DNA from: Candidatus Methylomirabilis sp.
Lineage (GTDB): Bacteria; Methylomirabilota; Methylomirabilia; Methylomirabilales; Methylomirabilaceae
Reading direction: 5' to 3'
Length of the DNA stretch: 14,910 nucleotides
Assembly: GCA_041498975.1 (NCBI GenBank)
Contig: JBGQJI010000055.1
Location: forward strand, 1-14,910
Shown here: one piece after another, positions 2,227 to 2,708 of the stretch
Numbering within the stretch: position 1 is the first letter of the stretch
Layout of the letters: each line of letters starts with the position of its first letter
Program-made: the position numbers and the translations under genes
Notes under the pieces: model-generated
What the model was told of the DNA's origin: nothing
The model's database searches: none
The model's input: the letters and a program-made list of their open reading frames with translations, nothing else

Positions 2227-2708
2227 AAGAAAGGGTAGATCGATTAGTGCCTCATGCGCGGAAAGATGGGCTGGTGGTTCAAGAGCTGGCAGAGGAACTG
2301 CTGGTCTATGACCTGGAACGGCACAAGGCCCACTGCCTGAATCGCACCGCCGCCTGGATTTGGAAGCACTGTGACGGCCGGACGACTGTGGCAGAAATCG
2401 CCCGGCTTCTGCAAGCAGAGTTGAAAGGACCCGTAGATGAGGAAATGATCTGGTTTGCGGTGGATCAACTGGGGAGAGACCACCTGTTGAGAGAGCGCAT
2501 TCCGCGCGCCACGGACACGGTAGGGATGTCGCGGCGGGAGTTGGTGAAACAACTCGGCGTGGCGGCGATCGTCGCGTTGCCGTTGGTCACCTCAATTATA
2601 GCACCGACAGCGAGCCAGGCGGTATCTTGTACTCCCTCCGGTCAACCATGCGGCACTCCCGCCCAGTGCTGTACGCCCCTCTGCAGTGCTGGCACCTGCG
2701 GCACATAG
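2223..2708 (+). CDS. PqqD/RRE-domain protein fused to a Tat-like signal segment and a Cys-rich C-terminal peptide (putative RiPP precursor, 161 aa)
   Basis: True start is likely ATG 2223 (GGAGG upstream, coupled to the kinase stop) rather than 1962. Residues ~10-90 are PqqD-like (ELLVYDLERHKAHCLNRTAAWIWKHCDGRTTVAEIA). Then MSRRELVKQLGVAAIVALPLVTSIIAPTASQA and VSCTPSGQPCGTPAQCCTPLCSAGTCGT. Confidence 0.85.
   Translation: MKERVDRLVPHARKDGLVVQELAEELLVYDLERHKAHCLNRTAAWIWKHCDGRTTVAEIARLLQAELKGPVDEEMIWFAVDQLGRDHLLRERIPRATDTVGMSRRELVKQLGVAAIVALPLVTSIIAPTASQAVSCTPSGQPCGTPAQCCTPLCSAGTCGT

Follow-up and report, generated by a model that had tools for sequence, protein, structure and literature searches.

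Gene Content of the Locus

The window, i.e., the whole stretch of DNA that was analyzed, is a 14.9-kb contig (14,910 nucleotides) of Candidatus Methylomirabilis sp., the 5′ end of which cuts a gene. On the + strand it carries a gene for a 161-aa protein, in which an RRE (PqqD-like) domain, a twin-arginine signal-like segment and a six-cysteine tail are fused in one chain, and this gene is flanked by those for a kinase, a nucleotidyltransferase-fold protein and a peptidase. Genes of exopolysaccharide type are located further downstream on the opposite strand. The features are as follows:

1..1257, + strand: 3′ portion of a gene for a large C25 peptidase, truncated at the contig end (PF01364; E-value, 6e-83; weak PorU-type matches)
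1330..2226, + strand: gene for a putative HprK-like P-loop kinase, in translational coupling with the fusion gene (TIGR04352, HprK_rel_A)
2223..2708, + strand: fusion gene coding for an RRE/PqqD domain, a twin-arginine signal-like segment and a six-Cys tail, 161 aa (ORF and translation)
2223..2516, + strand: N-terminal RRE (PqqD-like) domain, residues 1–98 (PF05402, AlphaFold, Foldseek)
2523..2621, + strand: residues 101–133, comprising G-M-S-R-R-E-L-V-K, a hydrophobic stretch and A-P-T-A-S-Q-A; putative signal or signal-anchor of Tat-like type, including an AxA site
2622..2705, + strand: knottin-like tail, 28 residues, followed by the stop codon TAG at 2706–2708
2760..3860, + strand: NTP_transf_5 nucleotidyltransferase-fold gene (PF14907; E-value, 4.2e-31)
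6070..10835, − strand: exopolysaccharide genes overall (Pfam/NCBIfam)
6070–7434, − strand: TPR-CBM_4_9 protein
7367–9718, − strand: Wzc-type tyrosine autokinase/chain-length determinant
9795–10835, − strand: Wza-type export protein

The ATG of the fusion gene overlaps the stop codon of the upstream kinase gene (ATGA) and is preceded by a Shine-Dalgarno-like motif, GGGAGG. The intergenic DNA of the window contains no small ORF with a [Y/W]xxP motif that could represent a separate precursor gene, and no terminator-like site, as an attenuator behind the fusion gene would have, was found on the + strand between positions 2708 and 2760. Scanning of 13 ORFs of the window against Pfam and NCBIfam detected no SipW-like peptidase, MsbA-like exporter, lasso cyclase or B2 protease. 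Mis-binning of the contig was considered and rejected: its GC content is 0.610 vs. 0.619 ± 0.012 for the genome, and its tetranucleotide distance ranks 63 of 116.

The kinase, a tentative assignment, matches TIGR04352 with an E-value of 4.9e-16 and 58.7 bits, under the model cut-off of 200, and has no Pfam match. Its residues H113, G128/S130/G133/K134, D151-E152, D157 and R172 are each invariant in all 37 homologues compared. In the NTP_transf_5 protein, D131, D133 (DxD motif, GDIDL) and D159/H161 are invariant or show a single exception among 47 homologues. For neither of the two enzymes did the PDB sequences include a relative below an E-value of 0.3. Full-length relatives of the C25 peptidase are between 1021 and more than 1629 aa long and carry the C25 domain C-terminally.

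Architecture and Distribution of the Fusion Protein

Translation of positions 2622–2705 yields VSCTPSGQPCGTPAQCCTPLCSAGTCGT, followed by TAG. A sequence-only reading of the same DNA had proposed a short peptide core at this place, and its coordinates, core sequence, cysteine spacing and count of eight Ser/Thr were all confirmed by the translation. The tail contains six cysteines in the framework C-x6-C-x5-CC-x3-C-x4-C (spacing 6-5-0-3-4), 8 Ser/Thr and no charged residues. The notion of a short core was incomplete: the cysteine-rich stretch is the C-terminus of a 161-aa RRE-signal-tail fusion and not a small-peptide gene, and a predicted signal-peptidase site lies exactly before its first residue. 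A stand-alone short form consisting of signal and tail was not found in a word-indexed search of proteins of 30–87 aa. An index-free profile search gave four short matches that were inspected (P0125, P0147, P0149 and P0215), two of which are clear fragments still bearing the end of the RRE. When the entire genome (2.68 Mb) was translated in six frames, the tail itself was the sole occurrence of the exact framework, and each of three codon-shuffled genomes contained none.

The fusion represents a large and widespread family of soil bacteria. Homologues of similar length number 1545 (E-value ≤ 1e-3), and PF05402 is present in 119 of the 120 listed; the residue and cysteine counts given below for homologues were taken over these 120 of the 1545. 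A profile of signal and tail matches 2,267 clusters at 50% identity, 385 of them at E-values ≤ 1e-10; the matching clusters are mostly of ~160 aa, with the match placed at ~100–160. Taxon labels assign 66 of 80 genome loci to Blastocatellia/Pyrinomonadaceae. A search of openly accessible full texts retrieved no paper describing the family, and a term search of one RRE survey found no mention of it.

RRE Domain and Signal-Like Segment

PF05402 matches the RRE of the window protein with 40.4 bits, above the gathering score (23.4), and is matched by all 28 aligned family members. AlphaFold models residues 11–90 with a pLDDT of 87–94 as a winged-helix fold, in which three strands (17–21, 26–30 and 35–39) are followed by three helices (41–48, 56–67 and 73–85). 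The top Foldseek matches are TbiB1 and further lasso B1 RREs (TMt, 0.77–0.81), including 5v1v (TMt, 0.77) and 6jx3 (TMt, 0.81), with PqqD (5sxy) also among the best. The usual partner of an RRE is a leader peptide on another chain. The monomer model additionally shows a strand at residues 122–126 (pLDDT, ~65).

The segment behind the RRE combines the pattern S/T-R-R-x-hydrophobic-hydrophobic-K/R with a moderately hydrophobic stretch (Kyte-Doolittle maximum of 2.05 at residues 111–129). Among the 120 homologues, R104, P120 and P128 are found in 120 each, R105 and S124 in 119 each, and A133 in 116; S103 is present in 97 and E106 in 98, positions 107–108 are occupied by V/M/L/I, and at position 109 R was counted 76 times and K 36 times. 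When Tat models were run over 73 such segments (E-value ≤ 1), formate_TAT matched 48 and TAT_signal_seq (TIGR01409) 27, with a best E-value of 7.9e-5; the segment of the window itself scores 14.3 bits against TIGR01409, under the cut-off of 16.7. The twin-arginine motif is not at the N-terminus but begins at residue 103, after the 98 residues of a folded domain, and an internal signal of this kind (from residue 101) is atypical for Tat or Sec. A Pro-x4-Ala-x-Ala site of signal-peptidase-I type is predicted to end directly before the first residue of the tail (134), and a small-x-small site lies 2–4 residues ahead of Cys1 in 64 of 73 sequences. TatC, VKOR and DsbA-like proteins are encoded in the genome.

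Predicted Knottin Fold of the Tail

All six tail cysteines are invariant in the 120 homologues. Six cysteines are found in 114 tails and eight in the other 6, the eight-Cys variants gaining cysteines in pairs. The exact spacing 6-5-0-3-4 recurs in 83 of 120, so a comparison suggested by the sequence-only reading, that of cysteine spacing across homologues, reveals conservation and not randomness. No D/E/K/R residues occur in 77 of 120 tails, and the composition (22% Cys, rich in S/G/A/T) lacks aromatic residues and His.

The same reading had taken the framework for that of an inhibitor cystine knot (ICK), and the assignment as knottin/ICK-type is supported by profile and model comparisons. A profile built from 45 bacterial tails matches omega-atracotoxin-Hv1a among PDB sequences with an E-value of 4.7e-5, and its best 60 PDB sequence matches are small disulfide-rich toxins or inhibitors; matches to plant trypsin-inhibitor knottins are weak (E-values of about 0.02–0.05). 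In loop 1, five of six residues of the window tail are identical, by eye, to the omega-atracotoxin-Hv1a chain. Structure prediction, also suggested earlier as a check, gave a tail-only AlphaFold model (tail pLDDT, ~87) that overlays spider knottins with an rmsd of 0.5–0.8 Å over 24 residues at 38–50% identity. With this model, Foldseek returned 14 matches, 13 of them cystine-knot peptides, the best being 1hvw (0.8 Å over 24 columns; TMt, 0.80) and 5fzv (0.5 Å), and VIA returned 11 (Z, 2.0–3.9), all of them small disulfide-rich peptides; as AlphaFold may copy knottin geometry from the cysteine pattern alone, these model results are not independent of the profile match. The weak E-values of the structural searches are due to the domain being only 28 aa long.

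The window tail stays below the cut-off of every Pfam toxin family (Conotoxin_I2; E-value, 0.37; 11.4 bits vs. 27). Among 28 relatives, weak matches (E-value ≤ 1) to five such families number 19, 18, 14, 12 and 11, and a cut-off is reached only by the multi-module protein P0161 (27.4 bits). Tails with 2, 3, 4 and 7 or more tandem modules exist, P0161 being a 363-aa protein with seven or more, which suggests that the knottin module is an independently folding unit. Tails of seven or more modules bear a closer resemblance to surface proteins than to small natural products, and this counts against reading the family as precursors.

Evolution of the Tail

The tail loops are hypervariable, and their fast evolution is decoupled from that of the rest of the protein. 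Over 51 pairs, pN/pS is 0.74 for the non-Cys positions of the tail vs. 0.25 for the RRE and, equally, for the signal segment. Where two RREs are at least 85% identical (220 pairs), the tails are 53% and the signal segments 94% identical. On a tree of 77 rows, the framework class of the tail changed at least 15 times (bootstrap range, 14–18). Tandem copies of the gene are present at four loci (L002, L059, L073 and L074).

Linkage to Enzyme Genes and the Kinase Target

A kinase gene lies directly upstream of the fusion gene at 33 of the 71 loci with enough upstream sequence, and an NTP_transf_5 gene downstream on the same strand at 44 of 72. Where at least 5 kb are available on both sides (n = 52), NTP_transf_5 is present at 34 loci, the kinase at 25 and C25, within 6 kb, at 27; the proximity of C25 is linkage, nothing more. 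None of the three enzyme genes is nearby at 11 of these 52 loci, and for 13 of 33 genes with a canonical tail, both the kinase and NTP_transf_5 are absent from the surrounding 2.5 kb. Such loci indicate that modification is not obligatory in cis.

The terminal Thr of the tail, previously proposed as the favoured kinase target, is not supported in this role. Ala is the last residue of 58 of the 120 homologues, Thr that of 22, Val that of 11 and Ser that of 9, and among 58 genes with flanks of at least 2.5 kb, Ser/Thr ends were counted in 2 of 29 kinase-adjacent vs. 3 of 29 kinase-free genes. The tail has no universal Ser/Thr position, the best being CC[S/T] at 91%; since this position is also Ser in the aligned spider-toxin chains, its conservation may be structural. 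As candidate kinase-linked sites, the C-terminal S/T, CC[S/T] and S/T before Cys1 were each rejected, showing no enrichment with kinase adjacency.

Possible Function of the Fusion Protein

We are inclined, with confidence balanced about evenly, to see in the full-length protein a precursor complete in itself, which would give rise to an exported mini-protein knotted by disulfides and would have the RRE as its built-in leader. In the cytoplasm, the RRE would act as a covalently attached leader to which the co-encoded HprK-like kinase and the NTP_transf_5 enzyme dock, and these would presumably modify a residue of the fusion protein itself. The signal segment would then take the tail over the membrane via Tat or Sec, a signal peptidase would free the 28-mer, and the VKOR/DsbA system of the cell would close three disulfides, probably in the knotted pattern (I–IV, II–V and III–VI, the third threading the ring). 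An uncharged tail rich in S/T/G/A next to an exopolysaccharide locus fits a surface or matrix role, or one in strain-specific signalling or competition, better than that of a cationic channel toxin. An extended form of the precursor reading, which is possible but which we would rather doubt, is that the family constitutes an undescribed class of ribosomal natural products, in which the RRE is the attached leader of a Tat/Sec-exported cystine-knot core that is phospho-glycosylated before export by the HprK-type kinase and NTP_transf_5. These would be the first bacterial knottins with dedicated maturation, and their cores would be swapped like cassettes between strains, one type resembling spider omega-hexatoxins in sequence.

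The protein may instead remain unprocessed as a membrane-anchored adaptor, its cytoplasmic RRE recruiting a separate peptide or protein substrate to the kinase and NTP_transf_5 and its knottin forming a permanent extracytoplasmic domain that touches, for example, the C25 peptidase or the polysaccharide exporter. The usual binding of separate leaders by RREs, and the B1-leader complexes among the best structural matches, would agree with such a role, as would the existence of multi-module tails, the linkage to large C25 and to TPR/CBM proteins, and a hydrophobic segment constrained like the RRE (pN/pS, 0.25), which is expected of a helix with a protein partner. We nevertheless consider it unlikely, given that a permanent anchor would have no evident need for the conserved Pro(−6)/Ala(−3)/Ala(−1) site followed by a residue other than Pro at +1, that the window contains no candidate separate precursor, and that tandem and orphan copies with swapped tails behave as precursors and not as adaptors. 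A low probability is likewise given to export and oxidation of the tail as an unmodified mini-protein, i.e., a protease inhibitor (possibly of C25), toxin or signal, with the kinase and NTP_transf_5 acting on another target of the polysaccharide locus and the RRE serving as an export chaperone or regulator. Orphan copies without enzymes (11 of 52 loci), the lack of any S/T position that tracks kinase presence, the C25 linkage (27 of 52 loci) and the weak profile matches to plant trypsin-inhibitor knottins all point in this direction. Yet the lack of charged and aromatic residues sets the tail apart from what is known of characterised knottins that are inhibitors or toxins, the fusion gene shows translational coupling with that of the kinase, both enzymes flank it at many loci, and these two enzymes, in combination with an RRE, are proven to tailor peptides, according to the accessible parts of two reports (PMC13381572, PMC6993621).

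It is very unlikely that the protein is a metal- or cluster-binding Tat passenger, in which the six cysteines would hold a metal or Fe-S cluster built in the cytoplasm and the folded module would be exported without a cystine knot. The Tat pathway commonly carries cofactor-loaded proteins, the RR motif is Tat-like, and the composition (22% Cys, S/G/A/T-rich, no aromatics or His) recalls metallothionein-like peptides. Against this, the ICK-type spacing shows no CxC or CxxC clusters such as are usual at metal sites, both the profile and the model point to a knottin, the eight-Cys variants add cysteines pairwise, as extra disulfides would, and a disulfide-forming system is encoded in the genome.

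Comparison with Known Systems

Clusters for linear polyphosphorylated peptides (LPP), as described in the accessible part of the report by Popov et al. (2026; PMC13381572), comprise an RRE, an HprK kinase, an NTP transferase and a signal-peptidase-like leader peptidase within capsule loci. The LPP of Bacillota and the fusion locus have in common an RRE, a kinase of HprK-like type (tentatively assigned here) and, without a lasso cyclase, an NTP transferase that is uncharacterised, as well as leader removal by a signal-peptidase-type step (predicted here), a polysaccharide-locus setting and variable C-terminal parts of the precursor (PMC13381572). According to the same part of that report, however, LPP have a discrete RRE, a separate precursor whose leader bears a YxxP motif, and their own SipW-like peptidase and MsbA-like exporter (PMC13381572), whereas in the fusion locus the RRE is fused to the presumed precursor, the core is predicted to be Cys-knotted, and the lineage is Acidobacteriota and not Bacillota.

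An HprK-family kinase (tentatively assigned in the fusion locus), an enzyme of NTP-transferase fold and a PqqD-like RRE also belong to the lasso peptides paeninodin and pseudomycoidin, as far as the accessible portions of the two studies describe them (PMC9266682, PMC6993621). In these phosphorylated or glycosylated lasso peptides, the kinase acts on the precursor and the NTP-transferase-fold enzyme is needed for the hexose on the phosphate (PMC9266682, PMC6993621), PsmK and PsmN being the enzymes that act on pseudomycoidin (PMC6993621). The lasso kinase targets a strictly conserved C-terminal Ser, whereas the tail described here mostly ends in Ala, and its motif is His-Lys-Asp-Asp, in place of which the window kinase has an invariant His, Lys and Asp-Glu (PMC9266682, PMC6993621). 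Neither a lasso cyclase nor a B2 protease, as lasso clusters have, is found among the window ORFs.

Bufferins belong to the RiPPs and carry Sec signal peptides (PMC11626156). Among such signal-peptide RiPPs, again in the accessible text, a small, folded, Cys-containing precursor is modified in the cytoplasm with an RRE partner, exported via a general signal peptide and cut at a signal-peptidase site (PMC11626156, PMC12710340), which resembles the route proposed for the fusion protein. Their Sec signal is N-terminal, their RRE resides in a separate DUF2063 protein and their chemistry is MNIO thiooxazole formation (PMC11626156), in contrast to the internal Tat-like signal and the RRE in the same chain of the fusion protein. 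A weak similarity was also noted to SynChlorMet ScmC/ScmD (NCBIfam TIGR04248; Pfam PF27840 per ESM Atlas): the fusion RRE matches ScmD with an E-value of 6e-5, and an ESM Atlas cluster neighbouring that of the kinase carries ScmC in 14% of its members, both matches being far below the cut-offs and no radical-SAM/SPASM genes being present among the window ORFs. These sequence matches suggest that an HprK-like and a PqqD-like protein form a recurrent pair.

If the precursor model is true, the RRE/HprK-kinase/NTP-transferase logic, so far seen in lasso peptides and LPPs of Bacillota, would reach the abundant soil Acidobacteriota, and the family would provide an example of an RRE fused to its own substrate, as well as a genetically simple route, consisting of one gene and general export, by which bacteria could be made to produce and diversify knottins. 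The role of tailoring enzymes in polysaccharide loci becomes testable in a second, unrelated lineage.

Knottins are valued drug and pesticide scaffolds, and the characterised ones are almost entirely of animal, plant or fungal origin. The thousands of bacterial sequences of this family amount to a naturally occurring library in which the loops are hypervariable and the knot is fixed, every member being fused to a recognition domain and an export signal and linked to peptide-tailoring enzymes. In the accessible text of the KNOTTIN database paper, bacterial knottins are known only as sequence families without an experimental structure (PMC5753296). The C-C-CC-C-C framework of the tail is that of ICK toxins such as omega-atracotoxin/omega-hexatoxin-Hv1a (1hvw, 1axh) and U3-scytotoxin (5fzv), and its 6-5-0-3-4 loops are as in the truncated 1hvw chain; at this length, the similarity to the spider toxins is compatible with homology as well as with convergence. 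The bacterial tail lacks the long C-terminal hairpin of full-length 1axh, and the profile match stops at residue 23 of 37. In addition, spider toxins stand alone as prepropeptides, whereas the bacterial tail sits behind an RRE and an internal signal.

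Fusion Gene and Its Product

Translation of window bases 2622–2705 gives VSCTPSGQPCGTPAQCCTPLCSAGTCGT, followed by a TAG stop codon. This tail has six cysteines at the spacing 6-5-0-3-4, eight Ser/Thr and no charged residues; the sequence, coordinates, cysteine spacing and Ser/Thr content described in the sequence-only reading were therefore confirmed. That reading took the 28-mer for a peptide core. Its reading frame extends well upstream, and the 28-mer is encoded as the end of a 161-aa gene; a plausible start codon is the ATG at 2223, which shares bases with the previous gene's stop codon (ATGA) and has a GGGAGG motif ahead of it. 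The predicted signal-peptidase cut at A133/V134 would release exactly these 28 residues.

Regions of the fusion protein (window 2223–2708, forward strand)
Residues 1–98: RiPP recognition element (RRE), PqqD-type (PF05402, 40.4 bits; cut-off 23.4)
Residues 101–133: signal-like segment (G-M-S-R-R-E-L-V-K, a hydrophobic stretch of 17–19 residues, A-P-T-A-S-Q-A)
Residues 134–161: six-Cys tail, the end of the 161-aa product

The AlphaFold model of the RRE, built on 120 homologues, has three strands followed by three helices (pLDDT 87–94), and its best PDB matches are the leader-bound lasso-peptide B1 RREs 5v1v (TMt 0.77) and 6jx3 (TMt 0.81), as well as PqqD. Two more cysteines, residues 38 and 50 (window 2334–2372; AHCLN and KHCDG motifs), lie in the RRE and are invariant in 120 homologues, and a disulfide, a metal site or a redox switch are candidate roles for them. 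Multi-module relatives that are more distant, P0140 and P0161 among them, lack the first of the two.

Family Size and Distribution

A similar-length search returned 1545 homologues at E ≤ 1e-3; counts out of 120 refer to the 120 of these that were listed, and PF05402 was found in 119 of them. A signal-plus-tail profile made from 73 segments matched 2,267 clusters of 50% identity at E ≤ 1e-3 (385 at E ≤ 1e-10), most of them about 160 aa long with the matched part at about 100–160. No stand-alone signal plus tail was found in a search restricted to proteins of 30–87 aa, and two of four inspected short profile matches were clear fragments retaining the end of the RRE domain.

In total, 80 of 151 genomic places were examined as loci. 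According to the record titles, 66 belong to Blastocatellia/Pyrinomonadales/Pyrinomonadaceae, nine to generic Acidobacteria(ota), and five carry another or no label. In the window lineage the gene is patchy and accessory, since only one of 17 other genomes in the genus and seven of 61 in the order carry it, none of the seven being among the order's 25 high-quality genomes. This patchiness points to an accessory island that is mobile or to repeated losses of the gene; the window contig is compositionally typical for its genome.

Knottin Likeness of the Tail

The cysteine spacing is not random among homologues: all six cysteines are invariant in 120 of 120, and 83 tails have exactly the window spacing. 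Six cysteines are found in 114 tails and eight in the other six, the extra ones being added in pairs. In a six-frame translation of the 2.68-Mb window genome the exact framework occurs once, and it is absent from three of three codon-shuffled copies. The tail finding is thus real and non-random.

The window tail scores far under every Pfam toxin-family cut-off. Among 28 tails, weak matches (E ≤ 1) were obtained to Conotoxin_I2 (19), Conotoxin (18), UPF0506 (14; best E-value, 1.1e-5), Toxin_29 (12) and Omega-toxin (11). Against PDB sequences, a profile of 45 tails matches omega-atracotoxin-Hv1a (E-value, 4.7e-5), and its best 60 matches consist of small toxins or inhibitors rich in disulfides. 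Loop 1 of the window tail, compared by eye, is identical to the omega-atracotoxin chain at five of six positions. Homology and convergence with this toxin are inseparable here, because the profile score stems mostly from the cysteine columns. A model of the tail alone, with a pLDDT of about 87 over the knot, overlays 1hvw at 0.8 Å and 5fzv at 0.5 Å over 24 columns, 13 of its 14 Foldseek matches are cystine-knot peptides, and all 11 matches of an exhaustive structure aligner (Z 2.0–3.9) are small disulfide-rich peptides; these model-based results depend on the cysteine pattern and lend it no independent support. Together, the profile match and the predicted overlay uphold the knottin-type framework proposed earlier, and the tail is likely to be a disulfide knot.

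Tandem knottin modules, numbering 2, 3, 4 and at least 7, occur in relatives, which shows the unit to be a self-folding domain. These relatives (loci L050, 6355–6540, and L051, 6079–6354; proteins P0128, P0140 and P0161) have the same RRE and signal, with modules 0–1 residues apart. Another relative, P0196 (292 aa), carries a Peptidase_S74 intramolecular-chaperone domain (E-value, 2.1e-11), the self-cleaving domain of phage tail spikes, behind its RRE, signal and knottin.

Evolution of the Tail

By a crude Nei-Gojobori estimate over 51 gene pairs, pN/pS is 0.74 at non-Cys tail positions, a value that tail indels may inflate, versus 0.25 for the RRE and signal. Over 7,140 pairs, identity correlates with that of the RRE at r 0.24 for the tail and r 0.62 for the signal; among the 220 pairs with RRE identity of at least 85%, tails are 53% and signals 94% identical. 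No D, E, K or R is found in 77 of 120 tails (composition C 22, S 14, A 14, G 12, T 10, P 6 percent). The maximum-likelihood tree of the RRE and signal part has 77 rows, eight loci being absent as a result of motif-based gene extraction, and includes 46 rows with the canonical framework and 31 with others. Switching between the two requires 15 changes (bootstrap range 14–18), at least eight of which are forced by well-supported branches. At locus L002, two tandem genes with non-canonical tails are sister to the window's canonical tail; tandem copies also occur at L059, L073 and L074. In its evolution the tail behaves like a cassette. Sixteen of the 7,140 pairs combine RRE identity below 65% with tail identity of at least 80%, and such similar tails on diverged RREs suggest that tails are exchanged or that they converge on favoured cores. 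The relative P0060 is 54% identical to the window protein in the RRE and 71% in the non-Cys tail, with ...CCTPLC... and a terminal Gly-Thr in common.

Signal-Like Segment

Segment 101–133 (Kyte-Doolittle maximum 2.05) resembles an export signal that carries a cleavage site, yet it is internal and unusually conserved. Among 120 homologues, R104 (120), R105 (119), P120 (120), T123 (115), S124 (119), P128 (120), Q132 (108) and A133 (116) are kept, position 131 is A, S, T or V, and position 134 is never Pro. A small-x-small site lies 2–4 residues ahead of the first Cys in 64 of 73 more diverse segments, of which 48 match formate_TAT and 27 TIGR01409 at E ≤ 1; the window segment itself scores 14.3 bits against TIGR01409, under the 16.7 cut-off. 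TatC, VKOR and DsbA-like genes are encoded in the window genome. The TatC match is split (model positions 1–92 and 120–208) between contigs C157 (5210–5536) and C71 (11448–11720), probably one gene broken by assembly.

The pN/pS of the segment (0.25) equals that of the RRE, and a generic signal peptide would be less constrained. It is therefore probable that the segment is also recognised by the RRE in cis, by an enzyme or by a membrane partner. The monomer model places a five-residue strand at 122–126 (pLDDT about 65).

Gene Neighbourhood

Genes of the window
1–1257, forward strand: C25 peptidase, truncated at the contig end
1330–2226, forward strand: HprK-like kinase
2223–2708, forward strand: fusion gene
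2760–3860, forward strand: NTP_transf_5
Opposite strand: DnaJ-SnoaL protein, TPR-CBM protein, Wzc-type and Wza-type polysaccharide export proteins

The kinase is directly upstream of the fusion gene in 33 of 71 loci with enough sequence, and NTP_transf_5 follows it in the same orientation in 44 of 72. Among 52 loci flanked by at least 5 kb on either side, NTP_transf_5 was found in 34, the kinase in 25, C25 in 27, all three in 11 and none in 11. Kinase residues His113, P-loop Lys134, Asp151-Glu152 and Asp157 are kept in 37 of 37 homologues, and the NTP_transf_5 DxD motif is invariant or has one exception among 47.

The terminal Thr had been favoured as a kinase target. Conservation argues against it: of 120 homologues, 58 end in A, 22 in T, 11 in V and 9 in S, and in 58 well-flanked genes a C-terminal S/T does not track the kinase (2/29 kinase-linked versus 3/29 kinase-free). 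In the same genes, CC[S/T] occurs in 19/29 versus 23/29, as does S/T ahead of Cys1 (19/29 versus 23/29). If the kinase does act on the fusion protein, candidate sites, chosen for their conservation, would be S/T151 (91%), T123/S124 within the hydrophobic segment, and T129. The earlier idea of the tail as an inhibitor of the C25 protease is purely a matter of gene linkage.

At locus L005, a PMT_2 gene (6659–8119; GT-C, protein-mannosyltransferase-like) replaces NTP_transf_5 directly after the fusion gene, a hint at possible extracytoplasmic glycosylation of the S/T-rich tail. Orphan copies adjoin giant DUF4214 proteins or housekeeping genes. L032 and L035, which have no kinase, NTP_transf_5 or C25, adjoin secreted DUF4214-ending proteins of 1085–1855 aa, and L046, likewise devoid of the three, has a 1353-aa ORF at the matching position.

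Elsewhere in the window, a tRNA-Glu (CTC) lies at 14271–14346 on the forward strand (ARAGORN; Rfam, 64.1 bits), within the otherwise gene-poor 14026–14910. Three reverse-strand ORFs have no above-threshold Pfam or NCBIfam match: 10884–12245 (453 aa; weak FecR match, E-value 0.0023), 13018–14025 (335 aa) and 5489–5887 (132 aa).

Comparison with Known Systems

No description of the fusion family was found by full-text literature search, nor was the family found by a term search of an RRE survey. The KNOTTIN database paper treats bacterial knottins solely as sequence families that lack an experimental structure (PMC5753296). Paeninodin-type lasso peptides are tailored by an RRE, an HprK-like kinase and an NTP transferase; the kinase (poly)phosphorylates the conserved C-terminal Ser of the precursor, and hexose addition to the phosphate requires the NTP transferase PsmN (PMC9266682, PMC6993621). 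The linear polyphosphorylated peptides (LPPs) of Bacillota have the same set without a cyclase, in capsule loci, with an RRE-dependent signal-peptidase-like leader peptidase and phosphorylation of core Ser3 (PMC13381572). As bufferins show, RiPP precursors are able to bear general Sec signal peptides; the authors of that work consider the Sec pore poorly suited to bulky modifications (PMC11626156).

By analogy, the fusion family would follow a common logic of RRE-guided tailoring and export. It stands apart in having an RRE joined in one chain with the presumed substrate, a Tat-like signal at an internal position, a predicted cystine knot as its core, and hosts among the Acidobacteriota. The fusion protein could be an exported, cleaved precursor that uses its own RRE as a built-in leader, a reading for which the chances seem evenly balanced; its modification by the kinase and NTP_transf_5 encoded alongside is conceivable, if somewhat doubtful. 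The RRE-signal-tail fusion is of more interest than a peptide on its own, being a new architectural variant in which two known things are joined: knottin mini-proteins and the tailoring of peptides guided by an RRE.
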